Below, one piece after another: positions 2,947 to 29,600 of a DNA stretch of 32,000 nt. The notes beneath the pieces are model-generated. The model was given only the letters and a program-made list of their open reading frames with translations, made no database searches and was not told the DNA's origin. A program made the position numbers and the translations under genes. Source of the DNA: Candidatus Iainarchaeum sp. GTDB taxonomy: Archaea; Iainarchaeota; Iainarchaeia; Iainarchaeales; JAZDEL01. Numbering within the stretch: position 1 is the stretch's first letter; every line of letters starts with the position of its first letter. The DNA lies in contig JAZDEL010000003.1 in the NCBI GenBank assembly GCA_043808785.1, positions 51,237-83,236 of the forward strand, written 5' to 3'.

Positions 2947-3005
2947 ACTTTTTCTGCACTTATAAACTTCCCCAGCAATAACCTTATTAAGGTTCATTTT
3001 GCGCC

Positions 3006-3079
3006 ATTCCGTAGGCGCGCGAATTGGCTGCTGCCAATTGCGCCCGTTTTGGCCGCCCCAAAACAGGGCAATCCGGAAT
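3006..3079 (+). repeat. Y-shaped nested inverted-repeat element, copy 1 (intergenic)
   Basis: The outer stem is attccg 3006-3011 / cggaat 3074-3079. Hairpin 3017-3043 is gcgc-g-aattggc tgct gccaatt gcgc. Hairpin 3046-3064 is gttttgg ccgcc ccaaaac. It has the same architecture as 13163-13242 read on the opposite strand, with identical arms GCGCGAATTGG and ATTGCGCCC. Confidence 0.7.
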
Positions 3080-3137
3080 ATGTGGGCTGTTTTCAACAGC
3101 CCGGTAATATTTTGTGTCAAATTTCCCGCCATTGCAT

Positions 3138-4583
3138 TCACCCAAACAACTTGCCCAGCATGGGGTGCATATCCATAAGCTGCGCCCTTGCAAGTTCCTC
3201 ATAAAGCCTGTAAACAATCCCCACTGTCAGAAGTATTCCAGTTCCCGAGCCCAATGCGCCAGTGAGGTCCGCGAACCCCGCAAGCAGGGCAACGAACGCG
3301 GAACCAAGAACACTTATCGGCGGTATGTACCTGTCGAGCACGCCCCTCACAATGCGCGGGTCGCGCCTGAACCCGGGGATATGCATGCCCGCCCTGTTCA
3401 GCTGGTTAGCAACAGCCTCGGAACCCTGGCCGCCCATCTCAACCCAGAACTTTCCGAACACAACACAGACAATAACAAGGATTATTATGTAAAGGAACGC
3501 GTGGATCAGGCTGCCGCCGATTCCTATGAAACTCAATGACACAATGCTCTGCGCCATTTCCCCGATTGTTGTCCCCGCGAATCCGATAATTCCCGAAAAC
3601 CCGGCGCCAAGCGCGCTTCCGAACTGTATTATTATATTCTCGACGAGGCTGTAAGGCGGAATCACGATAGTCCCTATCTTATCCAGCACCGCGCCTACGA
3701 TCGGCAAATCCTTGCCCAATGTCGCCCACATCCTCACGTTTGCGAAAAGTGCGACGGCAAGTATCACGGGAATGTTCGAAACATAAAGGAACTTGACCGG
3801 GAACCTGCCCCCTGTTCCGCGCCTGCCCATTGTTATCGGTATATTGACATGCATGCCTTCCGCAAAAACAACCACAAAGAAAACCACGAGAGTGAAGAAA
3901 ACAGGGAGCAGGTAAATCATCGCATTAAGGAGGTTCTGCGTAACCTCGCTCATGAACAGCCAGAGCAGGCCCTGCCCGCCGAAAAACACGAGTTCCTGCG
4001 CTATATTGAACGGGTTGAACATGCGCCAGATCACGACTTCTGAAACCCCGCCCGCGATGAACAGCCCTATTCCCGAGCCTATGCCGTACTTGCTCACGAC
4101 CTCATCCATGTACATGAGCACTATTGCCCCGAGCGCAACCTGAAGTATCACGAATGGCAGCATCCCCGCCTCCGCGCTCAGGAAGCCGCTCATAACGTAA
4201 ACGCCCGCCTCGAAGAAGCAGAGCACTATTGCGAACAGTTTCTGCAGTGCGGTGAACCTTGCCTTGTCCTTCGGCTGCGAGAGGTCGATATTGAGTATTT
4301 TTCCCCCGACAAGCAATTGCAGTATGATCGAGGCAAGCACAATCGGGCCTATCCCTACTGTGAGTATCGTGCCTATCTTGCTTGCAAGTATTACCTGCAA
4401 TTGTTCGAGCTGCCCCGCGGATGAGGCGTTAAGCCCTATTACCGCAATGTTCCCCATTATGAAGAACAGCATCAGCACAGCGCCGGTCCAGATAAGCCTG
4501 CGCTGCAAGGTAGGCTTTGTCTCCGGTACTTTCACTTCCGGAAGCAGTTTGTAGACGGGCTCGAAAATGTCAAGGACATTCAT
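3138..4583 (-). CDS. secY: Preprotein translocase subunit SecY
   Basis: 481 aa and polytopic. MNVLDIFEPVYKLLPEVKVPETKPTLQRRLIWTGAVL is a typical archaeal SecY N-terminus. ATGA overlap with the rpl15 stop. Confidence 0.95.
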   Translation of the reverse strand: MNVLDIFEPVYKLLPEVKVPETKPTLQRRLIWTGAVLMLFFIMGNIAVIGLNASSAGQLEQLQVILASKIGTILTVGIGPIVLASIILQLLVGGKILNIDLSQPKDKARFTALQKLFAIVLCFFEAGVYVMSGFLSAEAGMLPFVILQVALGAIVLMYMDEVVSKYGIGSGIGLFIAGGVSEVVIWRMFNPFNIAQELVFFGGQGLLWLFMSEVTQNLLNAMIYLLPVFFTLVVFFVVVFAEGMHVNIPITMGRRGTGGRFPVKFLYVSNIPVILAVALFANVRMWATLGKDLPIVGAVLDKIGTIVIPPYSLVENIIIQFGSALGAGFSGIIGFAGTTIGEMAQSIVSLSFIGIGGSLIHAFLYIIILVIVCVVFGKFWVEMGGQGSEAVANQLNRAGMHIPGFRRDPRIVRGVLDRYIPPISVLGSAFVALLAGFADLTGALGSGTGILLTVGIVYRLYEELARAQLMDMHPMLGKLFG

Positions 4584-5116
4584 TCCTCTTCAGCCCCCGC
4601 ATCCGTGCCCGCGGCGCTTGCCCCGTCTCCCGATTCCTCGGCCTCGAAATCATCATCTTCCGTGCTTCCCTTAGCGGATGTTTCGCCCGCCTCTCCTTCG
4701 GTGCCCTCTATCTTCCCCCCCGCCTTTTCGATCGCCTCGATTGCGCCCGCGCTCGCGGAAAGGTTCCTGAGCAATATCTTATCCTTCACCTTTCCCCTGC
4801 CGAGGATTTTCGCAATCCCCTGCTCCTTCCCGTCTATGACCACAAGCCCGCCTTCCCTGCGCAGGGTTTTTTTTGCGTTCATTTCCGCGATAATTTTCTC
4901 GAGTTCGGAAACATTAACCGCCTTGCCCCCCTTCTTCGCCTTGAGTATTCTCTTTGTGCCGTAAACAAGGTAGAACTTGCTGAACTTGTGCTTGTGCGAG
5001 CCCGCGTTTCCTCTCCCCCCTCTGCACCCCGCGCCGCGCCTGTTCTTCTTGTTCCCGCCGCCGTGGTGCCTCTGCCCGCGCGCCTTGATTTTCTTCCTGC
5101 CTCTCCTTACAACCAT
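4580..5116 (-). CDS. rpl15: 50S ribosomal protein L15 (uL15) with a ~40-aa acidic C-terminal tail
   Basis: First ATG at 5116 (the track start at 5146 is TTG). MVVRRGRKKIKARGQRHHGGGNKKNRRGAGCRGGRGNAGSHKHK is the uL15 Gly/Arg-rich N-terminus. The tail is EGTEGEAGETSAKGSTEDDDFEAEESGDGASAAGTDAGAEEE. Confidence 0.92.
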   Translation of the reverse strand: MVVRRGRKKIKARGQRHHGGGNKKNRRGAGCRGGRGNAGSHKHKFSKFYLVYGTKRILKAKKGGKAVNVSELEKIIAEMNAKKTLRREGGLVVIDGKEQGIAKILGRGKVKDKILLRNLSASAGAIEAIEKAGGKIEGTEGEAGETSAKGSTEDDDFEAEESGDGASAAGTDAGAEEE

Positions 5117-5159
5117 TTCAACACCAGCCCTTTCAGCAAAATCCAAACATGCAAAACGA

Positions 5160-5627
5160 TTAAGCCATTTTCACTATCAGTTTATTTATTTCTTTTCCCC
5201 TGTATCCTAGCACGCCCCCCTCGGCGTAGCCCTTCTTTATCCCCGCCCTTTCGAAGCCCTTGCTTGGCGGGTTAAGCCTGAACACCGGTTTTATCCCGAA
5301 ATCCGCAAGCTTCTTTTTCCCAGAGAGCACAAGTTTTGCGATTTCCTCCGCGCCCTTAACCTTGTGCTTTGCGTAAAATGCGGAGTCAAGCCTCTTATTC
5401 CCCACAACGCGCCCGCGTTTCGCTATCACGTGCGCAAGTGCAGCCTCGCCGATTTCGCCGTATGTCAGGTAATCCCTTGACTTCTTAATCATGCCTTTTG
5501 CCGTGCCGTTCTCGGGCAGGAGCACCATATGGTTTGCCCTGTGCAGCCTGAGCAGTTCGAGCGTGTCCCTGATTTCCCACTTCACGTCGACCTCTCCCCT
5601 GACCCTTATTGCAGCATACATCGTCAT
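5160..5627 (-). CDS. rpl30: 50S ribosomal protein L30 (uL30)
   Basis: MTMYAAIRVRGEVDVKWEIRDTLELLRLHRANHMVL is the archaeal uL30 pattern. ATG at 5627 (5630 is GTG). Confidence 0.92.
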   Translation of the reverse strand: MTMYAAIRVRGEVDVKWEIRDTLELLRLHRANHMVLLPENGTAKGMIKKSRDYLTYGEIGEAALAHVIAKRGRVVGNKRLDSAFYAKHKVKGAEEIAKLVLSGKKKLADFGIKPVFRLNPPSKGFERAGIKKGYAEGGVLGYRGKEINKLIVKMA

Positions 5628-6380: not shown

Positions 6381-6889
6381 TTACCACCATATTTTTTTTC
6401 TATCGCATCCTTAACCGCAATGAACTGCTTTGCCGCGTCCTCCGAAATATGCTTCCCCGAAAACCTGTCTGCCGAAGGGAAAACCTTTTCGTCGCACTTT
6501 ATTTTCATCCCCGAATCTACCGCCCCCTTGAGCGCCGCAAACACCCTCGAGCCGTGCACCGGCGTGCTCAGCCCTATATCAAGTATCGCCTCCGCGGGCC
6601 CCTTTTTTCCGGCCTTTTTGCAGCAGAGGAACGCGGCAAGATATGCGGCAGGCAAATTGCCGCAGTGCATCTTCCAGCCGAACTCCTTCAATTCGCGGGA
6701 GTTTGCCGCGGAAACCATAACATCGCCCTTCTCCTCAAACCTCACAATCTGCACAATAGTGCTGTTGTTGGATTTCCTCACAACAAGCCTGTGCTTCCCC
6801 GACTTGAGCTGCGCAAGCCTCTTCGTGTAATCCGTCTTCTCCTCCCTTCTCCTCCTGAATGCCGGCTCGTATGTGGAAGTGTGGCTCAT
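6377..6889 (-). CDS. rpl18: 50S ribosomal protein L18 (uL18)
   Basis: 170 aa: FRRRREEKTDYTKRLAQLKSGKHRLVVRKSNNSTIVQIV is the uL18 pattern. Confidence 0.93.
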   Translation of the reverse strand: MSHTSTYEPAFRRRREEKTDYTKRLAQLKSGKHRLVVRKSNNSTIVQIVRFEEKGDVMVSAANSRELKEFGWKMHCGNLPAAYLAAFLCCKKAGKKGPAEAILDIGLSTPVHGSRVFAALKGAVDSGMKIKCDEKVFPSADRFSGKHISEDAAKQFIAVKDAIEKKYGGK

Positions 6890-7428: not shown

Positions 7429-8217
7429 TCAGGGGTTAACAATTCTCAAACCGAGTTTCTGCGCCTCCTCGAGCATCATCCTTTTCTTTTTCCTGCCGAT
7501 TTTCCCCGCAATCCTCACCGCCTTGTCCCTCCCCGCGGCCTTTATTTCCGCAAGGTTCCCCACAAGGACTTCCATATACCCCGAGGGGTGCATATGCCTT
7601 ATTTTCACGGGCGTCCTGTAACCCGGCTGGGGCAGCATTCCGTCCTCCTGCCTGCAGTGCATGTCTATGCCGCGGGGCGCGCGCCACCTGTTCCACTTCG
7701 CCTTGCTCGGAACCCTGAGCCAGCGCTTGCCGAACCTTCCCCTGAATGCGGGCTTCCACTTTTCGCTTATCGCCTCCGCGTTCCTCTTCGCCTCCTCGCT
7801 CTTCGGCTGTTTCTTAATCTCAATCCTTCCGAATTTCTTCCTGCGTTCGGCGCGCCTTTTTTCGTTCTCCTCGCGCGTTTTTGCGGATTCCTTCCCCGCT
7901 GTTTTTTTCTTCTCCGCTTCAGCCGGCTTTTTCCCCGCTTCAGATGTTTTTTCCGCGGGCTTTCCGCCATCGGCCTTTTTCTCCGCCTGCTTTCCCGTGT
8001 GCGCATCCGCGGATTTTTTCTTCTCCGTTTCGGCGGGCTTTTTTTCAGCCACGGCGGGCTTCTTCTCTGCAGCGGTTTCCGCGCGCGTTTGCGCCCGCGC
8101 GTCACGCGTGCCGCTTGCAGCGGCACTAGCCTGCACTTCGGCTTCTTTGCCCGCGGGCTTGCCCTTCTTCCCTTCCGCGCCCTTGCCTAATTTTCTCCCG
8201 TAAACTTTTTCAGCCAT
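7429..8217 (-). CDS. rpl32e: 50S ribosomal protein L32e (eL32) with a ~150-aa Lys/Ala/Glu N-terminal extension
   Basis: The C-terminal ~110 aa, KPAFRGRFGKRWLRVPSKAKWNRWRAPRGIDMHCR...GYRTPVKIRHMHPSGYMEVLV, is the eL32 core. First ATG at 8217 (8223 is TTG). The head is KKPAVAEKKPAETEKKK-type low complexity. Confidence 0.9.
   Translation of the reverse strand: MAEKVYGRKLGKGAEGKKGKPAGKEAEVQASAAASGTRDARAQTRAETAAEKKPAVAEKKPAETEKKKSADAHTGKQAEKKADGGKPAEKTSEAGKKPAEAEKKKTAGKESAKTREENEKRRAERRKKFGRIEIKKQPKSEEAKRNAEAISEKWKPAFRGRFGKRWLRVPSKAKWNRWRAPRGIDMHCRQEDGMLPQPGYRTPVKIRHMHPSGYMEVLVGNLAEIKAAGRDKAVRIAGKIGRKKKRMMLEEAQKLGLRIVNP
8083..8136. repeat. Segment in the rpl32e head homologous to the flanks of the rps3 insert
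   Basis: The exact 18-mer gcgcgtttgcgcccgcgc occurs at 8083-8100 and 13128-13145. The exact 14-mer gcactagcctgcac occurs at 8123-8136 and 13273-13286. The spacing is 22 nt here and 127 nt in rps3. The encoded peptides are VQASAAA...ARAQTR in both genes. Confidence 0.8.
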
Positions 8218-8267
8218 AACCAAAGCCTTTTAACCTTCCTTTTCAGCCAAACCTTCAAAACCATTTT

Positions 8268-12796: not shown

Positions 12797-13063
12797 TTAT
12801 TTTCCCTTTTCCTTAGCCTGTTCCGCTTTCGCCGCTGTGTTTCCGCCCTTCTTCTTCACATTTATTCCCATCTTTTTTTCCTTCAATATCGTAAGTATCC
12901 TTGCGACCATCCTGCGCATGTTCCTGGCTTTTGCCGGCTTCTCCGCACGCGTGCCGGATGCCGCAAGCGCCCTCTCTTTCGCTATGTCCGCGCGAAGGCC
13001 AACGAGCCTTGCCTCGAGTTCCTCGCCCGCAAGGTCGCGCAGTTCGTCAATCTTCCTCGGCAT
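12797..13063 (-). CDS. rpl29: 50S ribosomal protein L29 (uL29)
   Basis: 88 aa: IDELRDLAGEELEARLVGLRADIAKERA...ARNMRRMVARILTILKEK is the uL29 pattern. Lys-rich C-terminal ~22 aa. Confidence 0.9.
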   Translation of the reverse strand: MPRKIDELRDLAGEELEARLVGLRADIAKERALAASGTRAEKPAKARNMRRMVARILTILKEKKMGINVKKKGGNTAAKAEQAKEKGK

Positions 13064-13064
13064 T

Positions 13065-14156
13065 TCACTTCACCTTTTCCGCGGTTTCGGCCTTATCTTC
13101 CGCCTTTTCTTTTTCCGCAGCTTCCTTGCGCGTTTGCGCCCGCGCATGACGCATGCTGCCTCGCGATTCTGCCTTCCCGATTTGAAGCTTCGCTTCAAAT
13201 GGGCGCAATCGGGCATTGCCCAATTCGCGCGGCAGAATGCGCGCATTCGGCTCAAGCCGAACAGCGGCGGCAGCACTAGCCTGCACGTTGTCCTTCCCCC
13301 CGTGCTTTTTCACGTTCTCCTTTTTTTTATCTGCCGAAGCGCCATCTTTTTTCTCCGCCTTCTTTTCGCCTGCGCCGTGCTTCTTTGCCGCCTTCTTGGC
13401 TTCCTTCTCCGCAGCCTCTTTGGCCTCTTCCTTTGCCTTCTTCGCTTCCTCGGCAGCGGTTTCCTCCGCCTCCTTGAGCGATGCGGCCTCGCTTGCCGCC
13501 TTTTCCGCGGCCTCCGCAGCGGCGGACTTCGCCTTCTCAACCGCCTCGTCCCTGTCGTTAAGGATTTTGATAACGTCAATCTTATCGGGGAACGCCGTGT
13601 CCGGCCTCACAATCCTGACCTTTATCCCTATCGCGCCGACTTTCGGGTAAGCCGCGCTCTTTGCATAATCCACAAGCCTTGTCTGCTCGCCGACCTTTTT
13701 CATATAGCCTTCCGCAATGCGCTGGCTTTTCTTCCTCCCGCCCTTGCCCGCGAGTTTCCCCGAAACAACAATCTCAACGCCCTGCGCACCCGCAGCCATT
13801 ATATCCCTAACCGACCTGTAACCCACGCTCCTCCAGGAGAAGCCCCTCTCTATAAGCGCCTTCATCCTGTTCGCCATTGCCATTGCATCGAGTTCCGGCT
13901 TTGTTATTTCCTTAATCTCGATCTGCGGGTTCTCTATGCCGAAGCGCTTGTGTATTGTTTCCGTGAGCTGCTTTATGTTTGCGCCGCTCTTCCCTATCGC
14001 AAGCCCGGGCTTTGTGACGTTCACGATTATCCTCGTCACCATGGGCGTCTTCTCTATCTCGGATTTTGTGAACCCCGCGCGGTCGAGTTCGACCTTGAGG
14101 TACTCCTCGAGCTCCAGCCTTTTGAGGCCCTGTTCTATGAAATGCCTTTCTATCAT
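13065..14156 (-). CDS. rps3: 30S ribosomal protein S3 (uS3) with a ~160-aa C-terminal extension
   Basis: The N-terminal 200 aa is the uS3 KH plus C-terminal domain (TRIIVNVTKPGLAIGKSGANIKQL...GVEIVVSGKLAGKGGRKKSQRIAEGYMKKVG). The tail (nt 13068-13556) is AEKAASEAASLKEAEETAAEEAKKAKEEAKEAAEKEAKK... It includes the structured in-frame insert at 13146-13272. Confidence 0.93.
   Translation of the reverse strand: MIERHFIEQGLKRLELEEYLKVELDRAGFTKSEIEKTPMVTRIIVNVTKPGLAIGKSGANIKQLTETIHKRFGIENPQIEIKEITKPELDAMAMANRMKALIERGFSWRSVGYRSVRDIMAAGAQGVEIVVSGKLAGKGGRKKSQRIAEGYMKKVGEQTRLVDYAKSAAYPKVGAIGIKVRIVRPDTAFPDKIDVIKILNDRDEAVEKAKSAAAEAAEKAASEAASLKEAEETAAEEAKKAKEEAKEAAEKEAKKAAKKHGAGEKKAEKKDGASADKKKENVKKHGGKDNVQASAAAAVRLEPNARILPRELGNARLRPFEAKLQIGKAESRGSMRHARAQTRKEAAEKEKAEDKAETAEKVK
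13163..13242 (-). repeat. Y-shaped nested inverted-repeat element, copy 2 (in frame inside the rps3 tail)
   Basis: On the minus strand the outer stem is GCG-C-ATTCTGCC (13242-13231) / GGCAGAATCGC (13173-13163). Hairpin GCGC-G-AAT T GGGC AAT GCCC G ATTGCGC is at 13230-13203. Hairpin ATTTGAAGC GAA GCTTCAAAT is at 13200-13180. An extra hairpin TTCGGC TTGA GCCGAA lies at 13261-13246. A closing pair GCTGCC/GGCAGC lies at 13274-13269 / 13160-13155. Confidence 0.7.
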
Positions 14157-15911: not shown

Positions 15912-16523
15912 TTACAATATCCCGAGCTTTGTGGCAACATCCCCCGCCTTGAAAGCCCTGTTGATTTTCACAATCGCCCTCTTCCTCGCCTTTGTGTCGT
16001 TCAGCACGTTCACCGCATCCACCTTAATTCCGTAAAGCGCCTCAACAGCCTTCTTTACCTCGCCCTTTGTCGCGGCCCTGCTGACTATGAACACAAGCTT
16101 GTTTTCCGCCTCTATCATGTTTACTGACTTTTCAGTTATGAGCGGGTGCTGTATAACGCCGTAAGCTGAAATCTGGTCGTCCTTTGTCACCTTGCGCGAC
16201 TTCATTTCCTCCACGATTTTCTTCGCTGCCTCGGGGCTAATTTTTGCAACTTCCCCCCTGCCTTTTCCCGCGCCTTTTGCATCCTTCCCTTTCCCCGCTT
16301 TGCCTCCTTTCTTTCCGCCGAGCGGAAGCCTGTCTGTAATCGAACCAACAACGCCTTTCTTTTCCTGCGCCTTTTTCTCGCCCCCTTTCTCCCCTGCCTT
16401 GTGCACATCCTTCCCGCCTTTGCTATCGTGCTTCTCGCTTTCGCCCTTCTCCGCGCCCGAGCCCTTGCCGCCCTTTGCGGCCTCTGCAGTGCCGCTGGTT
16501 TTCTTTCCGTAATAATGCGCCAT
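15912..16523 (-). CDS. rpl23: 50S ribosomal protein L23 (uL23) with a ~115-aa Lys/Gly N-terminal extension
   Basis: The C-terminal ~85 aa, YGVIQHPLITEKSVNMIEAENKLVFIVSRAATKGEVKKAVEALYGIKVDAVNVLN, is the uL23 core. The head (nt 16179-16523) is GGKGSGAEKGESEKHDSKGGKDVHKAGEKGGEKKAQEKK... Confidence 0.9.
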   Translation of the reverse strand: MAHYYGKKTSGTAEAAKGGKGSGAEKGESEKHDSKGGKDVHKAGEKGGEKKAQEKKGVVGSITDRLPLGGKKGGKAGKGKDAKGAGKGRGEVAKISPEAAKKIVEEMKSRKVTKDDQISAYGVIQHPLITEKSVNMIEAENKLVFIVSRAATKGEVKKAVEALYGIKVDAVNVLNDTKARKRAIVKINRAFKAGDVATKLGIL

Positions 16524-18502: not shown

Positions 18503-18689
18503 CTGATTTCCGCCTGTTAAATTCACGCAGCCCCGTGCGGGTGCGTGCAATCCACGCCTGCGCGCCTCCAGCGGGAAGCGCACACATGCACGAGCGCAGG
18601 CTTACGCCTTACGCACGCGCAAAGCGCGAGTATGGTACACAGGAAAGCCGATGCTTTCTGTTTTCGGGGGATTCCGAAAATCCAAATCC

Positions 18690-18716
18690 AAAAAAAAGCA
18701 AAATCGCTTTTTTTGC
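18690..18716 (-). terminator. Terminator/attenuator-like hairpin plus U8 inside the rpl3 upstream region
   Basis: The minus strand reads GCAAAA AAAGCGA TTTTGC followed by TTTTTTTT (plus A8 at 18690-18697). Oligo-T on the coding strand is the archaeal termination signal. Confidence 0.4.
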
Positions 18717-18720
18717 ATTT

Positions 18721-18747
18721 ATATCCGCGCGGGTTCCGCGCCGATAT
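18721..18747. promoter_or_regulatory. 27-nt near-perfect palindrome between the two TATA-like boxes
   Basis: The sequence is atatc c gcgcgg gtt ccgcgc c gatat, an 11-bp stem with one C-C mismatch. It could be an operator or a 5' leader hairpin. Confidence 0.4.
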
Positions 18748-18782
18748 AGTGTACAACACTTACATATTTGCCCCGAGGAAAG

Positions 18783-22056: not shown

Positions 22057-25000
22057 CTACTTCCTCGCCTGGATGTAGAGAATCATCCCGACAAGGATTA
22101 TTATGATCACAACAAGCCCGAGCACAACCGCATTCTCGGATAGCATTGCAAGCCCGGTTGCTATGAAGTCCTGCTGTGCAGGCTCCTCAATCGTGAGCGT
22201 GAGCGCCCTCTCGAGGTGCTTTCCCCCACCCTCCACAATCATTTTCCCAGTGAACGTGCCAGTTCCCTTGGGCTTGACGCTTGCGGACAGCGAAACACTG
22301 TCTCCCGCGGCAATGGTCTTGGTGCCGCCCGTTATTTCCCAATCCTCGGGGAAACCTTCAAGCGAGAACTTAACCTCGACGCTGCCTGCAGACTCGTTTG
22401 TAACCGTAACCGCGACATTTCCGCTGTCGCCTATGCTCATGCTTGTGGGGAAACTGCCAACGCTTATTTCAGTGGCTTCCTCCTCGTTGCCCTCCCCAGC
22501 ACCCTGCCCGCTGTTGAATGTTATCTTGGTTGTCCTGTTGCCTATATTGCACCCTGAAATTTCCGTGCTGTAAATAACATATGCAACATCGCGGTCGGAA
22601 GTTATGTCAATGCTCTTCGTGGTTGTGCTGTTCCTCCCCACAGTGAAAGAATCCTGGCTTATTGTGAGCCCCGCCCCCGAAAGCGTTATCTCAGCTCCCT
22701 TATCCAGCGGGTTTGTCACAGTGAACTGTATTGTGCCCGAGTTTCCGCTGAACGCGACCTCGTTGGGTACGGTGAGCGTGAAATCCGTGCAATCGTTGCC
22801 TGTTCCGCTGCCGTTATCGCTGCCGCCGTTATCGTAGCGGTCCTTTACCTTAACGCCGAAGTCCTCGTAGAGGCCGCTGAAGTAGCAGTAATCCCCGTTG
22901 GAGAGCCTGCCGCTTACCTTGAGCCTTGCCTTCCCCGTGCTTGTCGAGGAAACGCCGCTTCCGAAGAACTTAACCCTTATCTCCTTCCTGTTTCCGCTGT
23001 AAATGTAATCCCCGCCGTAATCATCAACGCTCGGGTAAATATTCGCGCTGAAGGAGCCGTAGAGCTTCGCTATTTCAACATCACTTATCGTGAACCTGCT
23101 GCCAGAGTTGTTCCTCACATAGAAGCTTTCAATCGTGCTCCCGTCCTCGTAAACCTCGACTGTGTGAGTGTCAAGGTAAATGTTGTGGCAGTTCGCGCTT
23201 TCCGAGCTTGTGCCCGTGTTCATTACCTTTATGCTCGTGCTCTCGTAAATATCCCGGTAATTGCAGTATGCGTTGCCGCTGAAGTGCCCCCTTGCCCTGA
23301 GCGTGAGCGTGCCCCAGGTTGTCGAGGAAACGCTGTCCGCGTCTATTTCAACCTCGACCGTGATGTAATCGCCGTCATAGATTGTCCTGCCGGAATAATC
23401 CGAAGAATCCAAAACCCTTGCATCAAACTTAGAGCCGCTTGTTTCGTAGGCCTCAACGCCCTCAAGGTAGAATGTCCTGCCCGAGTTGTTCCCGAGGCGG
23501 TAAGTGAATGTGTCGGTTGTGCCTTCCTTGATTTCCTTTGTGCCCGTAACCCACTCTATCTGGTTGCACTCGCTGTTTGAATAATCATAATAATACTCAT
23601 CATTTACCGTGAGAGTGAAACTCTCCGTGCCTATGTCGCCGTAATTGCAGCCCTTTCCGCTTTCCGTGAAATAGCCCGCAACCCTGACGTTAACAGTCCC
23701 TGATTCTGTTCCGCTTACGTTGTAAGTGTCCACGTTTACGTTGAAATATCCCGTTTCCCCGGCGCCTATGTACGTGTCGTACCCGCCCGCCGTAGCGTTA
23801 AAGTACGGGTTGCTTTCCGTAACCTCAATCCCCCTGACCCCGAACCCTTCGCCGCTGTTGTTCTTTATATAGAACTGCAGGGTTTCGTTGTCCCTGCTTT
23901 CCTCAAGTGTCCTGCCCCCTACCTGAATATCTATGTTGCCGCACTGCGGGTAGTCAGGATAGCTGGCTGTGTCATAGACGGTAACATAAAAGTACTTTGC
24001 GGGGATGCTGCCCGTGCAGTTTCCGCTGACATTAACCTTTGCGCGGCCTTTGCTTGTGCCGCTTACGGAATCTCCGCTTACCGTGACGTCAAACGATTTT
24101 GTGCTGCCTGCCGGCACGCTAAGCGTGCTGCCGTAGCCGGAGACCGAGAAGCTGCCGTACTCCCTCGAAACGCTTATGCCGGCATTGAACGCCTTGCTGC
24201 CGCTGTTGGTTATGCTGAACGTGCGCGACTGCGTGCTGCCCTCGTTTATGTAAAAATCCTGAGTCGAGACGCTTATGTCCCCGCAGCCGAGGTATGCCGG
24301 AGGCGCGCCCTTGTCCTTGGCCGTAACGCTGAATTTCGCGTATCCTATGTCCCTGTAATCGCAGATTACTCCCGCGCCGTCGAAGCGGCCCTTAACCATG
24401 GCATAGCTGTGGATTATGGTCTCGTTGTCCACATTGCCCGCGGTAACGTAAAAATCAACCGTTGTGTATCCGCCGTTTGCCGCAACCCTCTTGTTTGCCG
24501 CTGTCTTGTTGGTAAAACTGAGCGGTATAGTGCTGTCGTAATCGTATGCGTACGCATCCTCAATTATGAAATCATAGCCGTTGTTGTTCCTGATGCCGAA
24601 GTACACAGTCCTGCTCGTGCCCTCGTCCATTGAAAAGTCCCCGGGCGTGAGGCTTATGTCCGAGCATTTGGGCGTTGCGGGCTTCTGCTGCCCCTGCGCG
24701 ACATTTGCCGTCAGTATCTTGTATTCGCTGCCGTAACTTACCTGGTTCGCAAACTTAAGGTATATAAAATCCGTGTAATACCCGAATTCCGAGCTTGCCG
24801 CACCGGGCAGGTCGATATTGAACTCCTGGCAACCGTTCACCTTAATGCTCGCGGAAGCCTCCCTGTAGCCGAAATCCTTTTTGGTTCCGTCGGGCCTTAC
24901 GCCGTAGCTCTGCAGTTTTCCGTAAACCGTTTCGTAAAGGTTAGGGGTGCTGCCGTCGGAATCGACGCATACCCTCATTTCAATCGCTGCATAATCGCCG

Positions 25001-26611: not shown

Positions 26612-29600
26612 TTAACAGTCAGATAAGTGCCACTGTGCGACATTTATGGGCCAGTAGCCTTTGCCTATCATGTAATCTGTTGGCTCACTGTCTGGTTCTG
26701 GCCCTTCGGTGTCTATCGAACCGTCTGCCGAGGTATACCATCCTTGCCAGCGATACCCTTTTTCTATTGGTTTGCCAAAATCGCTCCCATAGTGTGGCAT
26801 GTAGGAATACTCAAATGGAACGACATGGTAACCTTTATTCTCAAAATATGCTTCCGCTTGCGAGAGAGTTGAAAATGTCTTTGTATTATCTACCGAACTG
26901 TCTTTGTTTTCGCACCCCCACAGCCCGGCATAATAGCACAGGCCGATGCACGGGTTTGGCATATCGGGGCCTACGCCGCCATTATCGCCGCCTGTAGGTT
27001 CGACATAAAGCTTTGCTGTTGCGCTTTCCGATTTTGAACCGCTTGTCACATTCAGATAAACCGTTATGTTTCTCTGGCTTGAACTATCGTTAGTGCATGT
27101 GACACGATATTCATCGCCATAGTCGTTAGTTTCGCAGTCGCTATATGCGGAGAGGCTCCAGCCGTAGTCATACTGCCCAGATCCACCATATGCATACGCA
27201 GTAAATGTCTGGCTCTCGCCCGACCAAACAATAGCGCTTTCCGGCTCTATTGAAACGCTCAAATCCTGCCCGCTATTGCCTGGCTCGACATAAAGCTTTG
27301 CGCTTGCACTTCCCGATTTTGAGCCGCTTGTAACATTCAGGTAAATTGTCCTGTTCATTGTGCTTGAGCTTTCATTTGTGCACGTGACACGGAACTCACG
27401 GTCGTAGTCGTCTTTTTGGCAGTTATCATACGAGGACAGGCGCCAGTCATAGGAGTATCCGCCGTCGCCACCTGAAACATTCGCATAGAACTTTTGCTCT
27501 TCGCCCGATTCGACTGTGGCGCTCCCGGGCTCAATCGAAACATCTAATTCACCTGTGCTCCCGCCCTCAATCGTAAAAGTGCCGCTTTCGGCTGAAGAAC
27601 ACTGCCCGTCATCGTCGCAAACGAATGCATAATAGTTCTTAGTTCCAGAGTCGCCCGAAGAAGTTCCATAATCGCAATAACTTGGGCTGTAGCTTGAATA
27701 GCCGTCTGCGCTGCACCACGTGCCGCCCGAGCAGCCGCCGCTATCGTGGGAACTGGTTTTGCATATAAACATTTTTGTCCTGTCGTTGCCAGGCAGCGAT
27801 GCATTGATATCCTGCGCAACTTGTGCAACAGGCGCAGCAACCGCCCCGACAAACTCGCGTACAAGCGGCAGTCCTATAACCACATTCCCTATTGCCTGCA
27901 CTACGTTGCCTGCGGGGGCGGGCTGAACTGCCGAATATTCAGGGTCGGACCAGTGAACCTCGAAGTTCACGGAATCGCCGGGCTCGACAGGGTTTGGGTA
28001 AACATTGACATATTCAATATAAGGCTCGTTGTTACCGCCGCCCTCGTTTTGTACATACACCGTGAACTGCCTCTCACCGATATCGCCGTATGAGCAGTAC
28101 TTTCCGCCATCGAAGCGCCCGCTCACTTTCACATACGCCGTTCCGCTCTCGTCACGATCGACAGAGTATGCCTCAACCCTAACCTCATAATTGCCGCTTC
28201 CATGTGAATTTATGCTCCCGTCATAGGAGCCTGTTCCGTTCGCTCCAAAGTAATTTCCGCCGCTTACCACTCCAACATCCACATTCTCGACATAAAACCT
28301 CTCGCCCGAATTGTTCCCGTAACTGAACTGGCGGTATTTTGTTTCGCCCTCGTTCAAGGTTACGTCATCAGCATTTATGTAAATGTCACCGCATCGCGGC
28401 TCTCCGGTGGAATTGCCGTCAACATAAATAGCCCTTGTTGTCTGGTCAGTCAGGCCGCCGCTGTCCATTACCGAGAGCCTTATTGTTTTGTTGCCGCCTG
28501 TGGAATAATAGTGTGCTTCGGCCTTATATTGCACATATTCAGTGTCCCAATAGCCATCGTCCTCCCAATCCCACCTTACTTGAAGTTGGTCGGCTGTATC
28601 TTCCGCATCATAAGAATTATTGGCATAAACCTCAAATCTCGTGCTTGTGTTTCCGGATGTCGGGTTAACGTCGAAAACCGCGTGAGGCTGCGTGTTTCCG
28701 CCGCTCCCGCCGGCAGCCACATATATTTTTGAAGTGTCTCTTGCAGTTCTCATGGGACCTTCAATCTCAGTTAGCCTGAATGTAATATCTAAAGCTAACT
28801 GATTTGAGGTCGGGTTGGTGCAAGTGAGGGTACAGCCTCTCAAGTCCGTGCAGAATTCAGCAGTGCAATAGTCATATGGCATAGTCCAATGTGGGGCGGC
28901 AAAAACCCCATCTATGGTTCCGGAAACTACGGCAAAAAAGTCCTGGCTCCCGCCAGATTCAATAAAAGTCTCTTCGGGGAAAAGCTGGACTGTTAATTCG
29001 CCGCTACCGCCCTGAACATTGATGCTTGCATCATCTATTGAGTAAAAATCTAATGTCCCTTGTTTTGCAACTCCTGCTGCAAAAACATACTGCCCGTTGG
29101 TGATTGGCGGGTGGTTGCTTGGGATCTCAAAAATCATGCCCACCGTGCCTTCGTCGTAAGGGGGAATGTACAAATTTGCAGGCAGAGTTGTGCGGATGTA
29201 CTGGGGCGTATTTGTCCAACTAGGGTAGAAATAGAGGTCTTGCTCTGGCGAAAGCATTACTAGATAAAAATCAACTGGCCTCTCAGCTTCTGGATTTGTG
29301 AGTCCTATAAAGAGTCCAATCAATTCGTTTTGTTTATATGTGCCGCTATTTGTTGTAACTGTTACTGTCGGTCCCGCACGGGCAGGCAATTTCCGCATGT
29401 CCTTAAGCGTTATTGTTTTGTTGCTTGTCTTTACCTCGCCAGATAGCAAGTTATATGTGGTTTGCCCGCTGGCGGTCTTGGTCGTGGGTGGCATTACGGT
29501 TTCGATGTCCCGTGTAATTGCCCTTACAGTTCCTCCATCAGCCATCGGCGTGTATATCGCCACCGCACCTGTTCCTGTGATGTTCGTTGTAGCCTTGTTA

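Follow-up and report, generated by a model that had tools for sequence, protein, structure and literature searches.

Nested Palindromic Repeats of a Small, Lineage-Restricted Family in the Ribosomal-Protein Operon of a Diapherotrites Archaeon, One of Them In-Frame in Ribosomal Protein S3

Ribosomal-Protein Operon and its Extended Genes

The stretch of DNA analyzed here, referred to as the window, comprises 32,000 nucleotides (nt) of contig JAZDEL010000003.1 (positions 51,237 to 83,236; assembly GCA_043808785.1) from a Diapherotrites archaeon (Candidatus Diapherotrites), a member of the DPANN archaea. It carries the archaeal ribosomal-protein super-operon on the minus strand, in the order L3, L4, L23, L2, S19, L22, S3, L29, SUI1, Rpp29, S17, L14, L24, S4e, L5, S14, S8, L6, L32e, L19e and, further along, SecY, an EMC3-like gene, L34e, S13, and S4, after which genes for large surface proteins, RtcB, and archease are found. 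Our subject is a block of nested hairpins, about 160 nt long and placed in frame within the C-terminal tail of S3, together with related repeats at other sites of this operon and of the same operon in a relative. These hairpin repeats form a small family peculiar to this lineage.

In S3, the Pfam domains KH and S3_C reach to about residue 182. The remainder, 183-363, is a low-complexity tail of Lys, Ala, and Glu that hosts the hairpin block; the native C-terminus reads ..EKVK, and the stop codon sits 1 nt ahead of the L29 start. A variable low-complexity tail is present in every Diapherotrites S3 that was aligned (nine orthologs). L32e carries an extension at its N-terminal end, and the true start of this gene is probably the ATG at 8217. 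Long extensions rich in Lys, Ala, Glu, and Gly are seen on many ribosomal proteins of the window, namely S4, S13, an L15/L27A-type protein, L32e, S3, and L23 (genes at 193-1053, 1107-1826, 4580-5146, 7429-8223, 13065-14156, and 15912-16523, all on the minus strand). The aligned S3 tails and L32e extensions vary in length and sequence even among close relatives, and it is in such low-complexity extensions that the coding copies of the repeat sit.

Table 1. Host genes, copies of the repeat, and modules of the S3 copy, in window coordinates
Feature	Position	Strand	Remarks
Ribosomal protein S3 gene	13065-14156	-	363 aa; reading frame open through the hairpin block to the stop codon
Ribosomal protein L32e gene	7429-8223	-	N-terminal low-complexity extension of about 160 aa, of the same character as the S3 tail
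Composite palindromic repeat, in frame in the S3 C-terminal tail	13125-13288	-	About 160 nt; encodes ..VQASAAAAVRLEPNARILPRELGNARLRPFEAKLQIGKAESRGSMRHARAQTRK..
Stem B, 5′ arm GTGCTGCC	13269-13276	-	Pairs with 13153-13160; compared with L32e, two pairs have changed, both fully compensated
Stem B, 3′ arm GGCAGCAT	13153-13160	-	From the predicted fold
Hairpin C, GTTCGGC TTGA GCCGAAT	13245-13262	-	Same module in the relative L054 at 5502-5517 and 6700-6715
Outer stem O, 5′ arm ATTCTGCC	13231-13238	-	Pairs with 13166-13173; closes the three-way junction
Outer stem O, 3′ arm GGCAGAAT	13166-13173	-	From the predicted fold
Hairpin H1, GCGC-G-AATTGGGC AAT GCCCGATT-GCGC	13203-13230	-	Bulged purine
Hairpin H2, CC-ATTTGAAGC GAA GCTTCAAAT-C-GG	13177-13202	-	3′-side bulge; four compensatory pairs relative to the intergenic copies
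Motif F, GCGGGCGCAAACGCGC	13128-13143	-	The identical 16-mer is present at 8083-8098 (L32e) and at 5523-5538 of L054, in non-coding DNA ahead of L3
Short family member, B hairpin GTGCCGCT-GCA-AGCGGCAC (8108-8126) and F	8083-8136	-	In frame in the L32e N-terminal extension; encodes VQASAAASGTRDARAQTR
Intergenic family member, SecY-EMC3 spacer	3001-3102	+	O(H1,H2) three-way junction at 3005-3079 and hairpin T at 3084-3102; covariance model 103 bits (training copy)

Structure of the Repeat in S3

The minus-strand sequence of 13128-13290 is predicted to fold at -90.3 kcal/mol, compared to -68.9 +/- 4.0 kcal/mol for 200 dinucleotide shuffles, none of which was as stable (z = -5.3), and the 84-nt core containing the three-way junction gives z = -5.9 by itself. 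An earlier reading of this DNA from its letters alone (hereafter the original prediction) had described nested hairpins at this place and proposed the comparison with shuffled sequences; the hairpins it listed were recovered in the predicted fold.

The layout of the block can be written as B[C, O(H1,H2)]F, in which stem B holds hairpin C and stem O, stem O in turn holds hairpins H1 and H2, and GCGTCATGC and then motif F come after the stems (Table 1). A unit theme is common to the modules, consisting of a GC clamp, ATTnnGnC, a loop, and GnCnnAAT (type GCGC-ATTnnGnC-loop-GnCnnAAT-GCGC), and the units are either adjacent or nested, joined by a recurring junction of the form ..AATGCGCSCATT.. Since the bulge lies on the 5′ side in H1 and on the 3′ side in H2, the two are pseudo-mirror units. 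The block does not correspond to a known RNA family, tRNA, or tmRNA, which are ruled out by two kinds of scan: Rfam 15 gave 0 matches at gathering thresholds, the best permissive matches reaching 12-16 bits against thresholds of 50-71, and ARAGORN found no tRNA or tmRNA.

Members of the Repeat Family

S3 and L32e share two exact words, the 18-mer GCGCGTTTGCGCCCGCGC (8083-8100 and 13128-13145) and the 14-mer GCACTAGCCTGCAC (8123-8136 and 13273-13286), each of which occurs exactly twice, with 0 occurrences expected from shuffled sequences (100 shuffles for the 18-mer). This sharing is not due to chance, and the similarity exceeds the two anchors, extending over 56 nt at 75% identity. Both words had been noticed in the original prediction, as had the distance between them, which is 22 nt in L32e (8101-8122) and 127 nt in S3 (13146-13272), a difference of 105 nt; these observations were reproduced. 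On the other hand, the way in which it framed the block, as 105 inserted nt between flanks that L32e also has, needs revision, because stem B and motif F, which make up these supposed flanks, themselves belong to the element as modules, and L32e holds a short member of the family, a simple B hairpin followed by GCGTGACGC and F. The second copy that it placed at about 3006-3079 is present at about 3005-3079, in the intergenic spacer between SecY and EMC3, and its orientation relative to operon transcription is opposite to that of the S3 copy.

Further copies are found in a relative whose S3 is 80% identical over the alignable region (NCBI GCA_043820655.1, locus L054). One copy lies in frame in the C-terminal tail of L3. 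It and the S3 block are colinear end to end, supposed flanks included, with AGTGCTGCC on one side, C and O in between, and GGCGGCAC...CGCGCAGG on the other, but its stem O closes a GGAA loop only and H1 and H2 are absent inside it. Another lies just upstream of the L3 start codon and consists of a closed B hairpin, H2 and C in opposite orientation, and the identical F 16-mer, an order and orientation of B, H2, C, and F different from that of the S3 block. T and O(H1,H2) make up the copy in the SecY-EMC3 spacer of this relative, which shares both site and orientation with that of the window (84% identity over 109 nt), and a separate assembly (L056) has a spacer copy identical to it. Three of the six copies (S3, L32e, and L3 of the relative) lie within coding sequence, and the non-coding ones occupy the SecY-EMC3 spacer and the site upstream of L3.

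A covariance model, a check that had been proposed with the original prediction, was trained on the S3 and spacer copies of the window and the spacer copy of L054, and was limited to H1 and H2 because a MAFFT alignment of the three cores mis-registers stem O. Applied to the window and to the loci of relatives, the model scores the S3 training copy at 77 bits and recovers, besides the L056 spacer copy, two untrained copies in L054, at 5458-5539 on the minus strand (44 bits, E = 2e-9) and at 6680-6764 on the plus strand (37 bits, E = 3e-7). The model gave nothing convincing in the remaining Diapherotrites loci of the ribosomal operon, of which there were about 20 (together about 245 kb from relatives), and scans with the single modules agree with the copies obtained by the model. 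The H1 pattern has 30 matches in genome contigs, all of them bacterial, and patterns of H1, C, and F (three scans) have matches in viral contigs; every one of these consists of a single module and is attributed to chance.

Several features of the SecY-EMC3 spacer deserve mention. Hairpin T (GGGCTGTT ttc AACAGCCC) is a perfect 8-bp hairpin that adjoins the three-way junction downstream of the SecY stop codon, with no oligo-T tract after it on the operon sense strand, and it is kept in L054 with one compensatory pair change (GGGCTGTC/GACAGCCC). The spacer copy also shows ATGGCG(S)(R)AAA-like repeats of uncertain meaning. In L054, and also in L056, 39 nt of the SecY 3′ end are present as a direct duplication, with one copy on either side of the spacer element (L054:20119-20157 and L054:20286-20324). 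These two copies differ at six positions, all synonymous, and both encode MEMHPVLGRLLG*; no such duplicate exists in the window. The duplication may have come from illegitimate recombination with DNA of a related strain, or from an att-like integration. The sequence ATGAACCTTAATAAGG.. in the spacer of the window is not a decayed copy of the SecY 3′ end, as it is native spacer found also in L054 and in the closest relative described below. A small-RNA gene with its own promoter is likewise ruled out for the spacer copy, since the conserved TATA box (about 2960-2968) faces EMC3, which lies downstream of it.

Maintenance of Stems and Strand Asymmetry

Stems B, O, H1, H2, and T keep their pairing in every copy, and two-sided compensatory changes have accumulated between copies, in one or two pairs of B and of O, one of H1, one to four of H2, and one of T, while the bulges of H1 and H2 are conserved in position. 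There is in addition an asymmetry between the strands. In the copies oriented in the sense direction all imperfect stem pairs, five of five, are G.U in the mRNA and none is A.C, and folding favors the sense strands over their complements by 5-14 kcal/mol; for the S3 block the values are -90.3 kcal/mol in sense and -76.1 kcal/mol in antisense, and the L054 copies give similar differences.

Such observations would also fit cis-acting RNA structures, selected in the transcripts of the ribosomal-protein operon as barriers to 3′-exonucleases, as sites of processing or protein binding, or as signals for translational pausing or coupling; their presence in coding tails would then be due to function and not to tolerance. 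Besides the compensatory changes and the strand asymmetry, this explanation can draw on the B and F module, which is sense-oriented in all four of its instances, on the spacer copy, which is 84% conserved between the two lineages with diverged flanks, and on the fact that all copies seen lie in highly expressed ribosomal-protein operons. Against it stands the closest relative, which has the same operon and none of the three copies of the window. The positions relative to genes are inconsistent (a 3′ gene tail, a 5′ gene head, a 5′ leader, and a 3′ spacer), the C, O, and H modules occur in both orientations relative to transcription, and no Rfam family matches. The excess of G.U pairs is compatible with selection on RNA, and equally with a hairpin-dependent DNA mechanism combined with a transcription-associated C-to-T bias on the coding strand, five pairs being a tiny and weak sample. 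The cis-acting RNA named among the explanations of the original prediction retains the evidence of its stems but is at odds with the shuffling of the modules, their two orientations, and their absence from the nearest relative; we judge it unlikely, although it is the main competitor of the scenario preferred below.

Conservation at the Nucleotide Level

The original prediction was right that the reading frame is kept: the S3 frame stays open through the block to the stop, and the peptide reads as it was given. A functional Arg-rich extension of S3, for example one in contact with rRNA or mRNA, with the hairpins being incidental to it, could account for the intact frame that reaches the native C-terminus, for PNARILP, which is read in the same frame in S3 (..EPNARILP..) and in the L3 tail of L054 (..KPNARILP..) from the 5′ half of the composite, and for VQASAA and ARAQTR, which are common to S3 and L32e. 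However, the homologous 3′ half is read in different frames in the two proteins, GGC AGC ATG CGT CAT.. giving SMRHARAQTR in S3 and G GGC GGC AC.., taken as GGG CGG CAC.., giving GRHGSRADPSAQ in L3 of the relative. The same modules also exist in non-coding DNA and in the opposite orientation, and the peptide is missing from all nine aligned S3 orthologs, the closest included, a comparison which had been proposed with the original prediction. When the element's four open frames, concatenated, were compared with 5.8 billion proteins, S3 itself was the only match, so that there is no large family of in-frame, full-length copies. Taken together, the frame switch, the non-coding and inverted copies, and the protein search place the conservation at the level of DNA or RNA, and the Arg/Leu/Pro-rich peptide is a by-product; a selected protein segment is very unlikely.

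An open frame across the element is in itself unremarkable, given that two of the three sense frames are open, as is one of the antisense frames, a second antisense frame having a single stop near its end. A 68-aa open reading frame (ORF) in an alternative frame (MLPPLFGLSRMRAFCRANW...; 13070-13276, minus strand) also traverses the element. It is no more than the second of the two open sense frames in a GC-rich repeat poor in stop codons, and gives no evidence for an overlapping gene.

An excised intervening sequence was another suggestion of the original prediction. The block, or part of it, could be an intron of the bulge-helix-bulge (BHB) type cut by the tRNA splicing endonuclease, or a segment skipped through translational bypassing. 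The block has a length that is a multiple of three, it is strongly structured and closed by long helices, and a BHB intron is known in a protein-coding gene, the crenarchaeal cbf5 (PMC2738675). Nevertheless, a systematic scan of 13060-13420 for a helix, a 3-nt bulge, a 4-bp helix, a 3-nt bulge, and a helix found no BHB bracketing the block; the sole BHB-like match was a weak 36-nt candidate that conflicts with the predicted fold, and the junction of the A and B helices is a 2 x 2 internal loop. Copies in spacers and in antisense orientation are not introns, and as the S3 ORF has no stop codon within the block, nothing requires removal. An intervening sequence is therefore highly improbable.

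Gain and Loss Among Relatives

The closest relative that we found is the organism of Logan run SRR22387960 (loci L001 and L106), with 86% DNA identity over 4.9 kb and a SecY that is 95% identical in amino acids, and it is without all three copies of the window. In the S3 tail it has about 63 nt in place of about 207 nt of the window, and both tails end in ..EKVK-TGA-A-ATG(L29), hence the 105-nt spacing between S3 and L32e, though real, does not describe a clean insertion relative to the closest ortholog. At the head of L32e it has 27 unrelated nt where the window has the 57-nt module of B and F, with well-aligned flanks, and the 116 positions of the SecY-EMC3 spacer at 3001-3116 correspond to 10 nt. 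L054 has the element in L3 and none in S3 or L32e, while the window has it in S3 and L32e and none in L3. These contrasting sets imply that copies have been gained or lost since the lineages split. As for the spacer copy that the window and L054 share, we cannot tell whether it is ancestral and was lost in the closest relative or was inserted twice at a preferred site.

When L106:5131-5170 is set beside 3000-3137 of the window, the spacer of the closest relative is seen to hold ATGGCGCAAAA and GCGGAA, matching the right edge of the element in the window (..CGGAATGGCGCAAAA..). These matches could be the footprint of a deletion or a microhomology at the target.

It might be asked whether the S3 block is a repeat-induced chimera in a metagenome-assembled genome, given that the element is repeated within the contig and the contig derives from a metagenome assembly. 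Yet neither the reading frame nor the native C-terminus nor the start of L29 is disrupted, L054, which was assembled independently, carries a homologous composite in frame within a different ribosomal protein, and the separate assemblies L054 and L056 agree on the spacer copy. We consider such an artefact hardly credible.

A Plausible Scenario for the Origin of the S3 Block

We consider it probable, though far from settled, that the S3 block is a modular, nested palindromic DNA repeat, resembling the repetitive extragenic palindromic (REP) sequences and bacterial interspersed mosaic elements (BIMEs) or the Rickettsia palindromic elements (RPEs), that belongs to a small lineage-restricted family and is tolerated and translated in a disordered tail. 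The family is built of short GC-clamped hairpin units, placed side by side or nested in the loops of one another, and according to this scenario modules would be gained and lost as units, probably via recombination or slippage at the junction motif. One composite copy, B[C, O(H1,H2)]F, would have landed in the disordered Lys/Ala/Glu-rich extension of S3 in an orientation and frame free of stop codons, with a net length change relative to the closest ortholog of whole codons, owing to which translation can reach the native ..EKVK stop. The ribosome would then read through the block, so that a presumably tolerant tail would gain a patch of about 53 aa rich in Arg, Leu, and Pro, and the insert would be near-neutral. 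The spread at the DNA level may depend on a hairpin-recognizing activity supplied in trans, such as a Y1/HUH-type transposase as in REP sequences and their REP-associated tyrosine transposases (RAYTs), or on gene conversion. The host site appears suited to such an event, as the Pfam domains of S3 end ahead of it and the tail is variable in all aligned Diapherotrites S3 proteins.

A number of observations weigh against the scenario of a tolerated DNA repeat. No transposase, RAYT, or IS200/IS605 gene is found among the ORFs scanned in the 32-kb window, no terminal inverted repeat is conserved in sequence among the copies, and neither a clean empty site nor a clean target-site duplication can be defined in the fast-evolving tails of S3 and L32e. 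Three loci per lineage are in view, which leaves a genome-wide multi-copy status unproven, and all copies lie in the region of the ribosomal-protein operon, with none in the 17 kb of non-ribosomal genes in the window. The conservation of the spacer copy between lineages, where its flanks are barely alignable, hints at constraint, and the G.U pattern and the greater stability of the sense strands fit selection on RNA too.

A bolder interpretation is that the modules represent a new class of archaeal structured element that preferentially colonizes ribosomal-protein operons by inserting hairpins beside or into the loops of other hairpins, and that is kept for a role of the hairpin in the mRNA, such as stabilization, processing, pausing that tunes translational coupling, or binding of ribosomal proteins. 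If this were true, the ribosome would routinely translate through a three-way junction of -90 kcal/mol in an essential gene. We regard this interpretation as distinctly doubtful.

Other Repeated Sequences in the Window

Two proteins of very large size (1082 aa and 1043 aa), of a secreted or surface type, contain diverged direct repeats (26997-27452 and 22884-24068), one pair of which is 171 nt long with 75% identity. Weak PKD and Ig-like matches were obtained with these proteins, whose repeats have no relation to the hairpin family. The DNA ahead of the L3 operon holds, on the minus strand (18689-18756), a block of some 68 nt that is near-identical to L054:5226-5292, with diverged flanks. Within its sequence, TGTACACT.TATCGGCGCGGAACCCGCG.GGATATAAATGCAAAAAAAGCGATTTTGCTTTTTTTTGG, there are a GC hairpin, the TATA-like ATATAAAT, and a hairpin with T8 after it. 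Either the promoter of the operon with a terminator upstream of it or a small RNA could account for the block.

Comparison with Known Systems

The original prediction had considered an element resembling a REP sequence or a miniature inverted-repeat transposable element (MITE), exapted into a coding sequence. The part concerning a repeat has held, as the repeat is found at other sites, in both orientations, with differing presence among relatives and with conservation of nucleotides, whereas the hallmarks of a MITE and evidence for exaptation are absent. Prokaryotic MITEs, including those of the archaea Sulfolobus and Haloquadratum, are small, non-coding, structured, and polymorphic in their presence, and they can create in-frame fusions (PMC10969869). 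The S3 family is likewise small, structured, polymorphic among relatives, and in frame in genes, but its closing stems covary (ATTCTGCC, ATTTTGCC, and ATTCCG; GTGCTGCC, GTGCCGCT, and GTGTGGCT) instead of forming conserved terminal inverted repeats, no parent insertion sequence accompanies it, no short target-site duplication could be recognized, and its modules recombine where a MITE moves as one fixed unit. A classical MITE is ruled out by the covarying closing stems. The BHB intron of cbf5 (PMC2738675) resembles the S3 block in being a structured extra segment in an archaeal ORF, and differs from it in that the S3 block has no BHB at its boundaries, its ORF is open, and members of its family lie outside genes.

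REP sequences, BIMEs, and the related REPINs are short, GC-rich, imperfect palindromes with a bulge or mismatch, arranged in alternating orientation and mobilized by RAYTs of the Y1 type; they are bacterial, extragenic by definition, and present in tens to hundreds of copies together with a cognate RAYT gene (PMC3116915, PMC3337134). The S3 family, too, has short imperfect palindromes as its units; the bulge is conserved, the units lie in clusters and alternate in orientation (H1 and H2), the stems are maintained, and the spacer copy after SecY recalls REP sequences at the 3′ ends of operons. By contrast with REP sequences, half of its copies are intragenic, the host is an archaeon, the window has no RAYT or IS200/IS605 gene among its ORFs, and no conserved flanking tetranucleotide was identified. 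By this comparison the S3 family would not count as a member of the REP/BIME group, though its unit structure and clustering are similar.

In the open-access literature we found no report of such elements in Diapherotrites or in archaeal ribosomal proteins. If the scenario holds, it would extend selfish palindromic DNA within protein-coding genes, a phenomenon classic in Rickettsia, to a DPANN archaeon and to core ribosomal proteins. The long low-complexity extensions that ribosomal proteins have in Diapherotrites would seem to serve as safe landing pads, providing one route by which such tails grow and diversify. As the hairpin blocks would be non-homologous insertions, they should be masked in annotation and in phylogenomics based on ribosomal proteins. 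The modular nesting and the compensatory changes moreover constitute a natural data set for asking whether hairpins are kept by a mobilizing enzyme or by a function at the RNA level.

The most instructive parallel is offered by the RPEs, palindromes of about 100-150 nt that lie in spacers and in frame in many unrelated ORFs of a host with a reduced genome, are translated as extra peptide segments at tolerant positions of unrelated essential genes, and encode a conserved peptide in each family (Ogata et al., 2000, as reviewed in PMC10969869). The S3 family is similarly palindromic, with about 160 nt and a stable predicted hairpin fold (z = -5.3), and is found in frame in S3, L32e, and L3 of L054 as well as between genes, in the spacer and upstream of L3, in a tiny archaeon comparable in this respect to the reduced-genome Rickettsia. 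It differs in that the homologous 3′ half is read in another frame in L3 of L054, so that no conserved peptide is encoded, in its modular and nested architecture, in its hosts, which are low-complexity tails of ribosomal proteins as far as seen, and in belonging to an archaeon and not to an alphaproteobacterium. The likeness is one of description, and on this footing the S3 family would not be a member of the RPEs but appears to work like them, which makes the RPEs its closest functional analogue.

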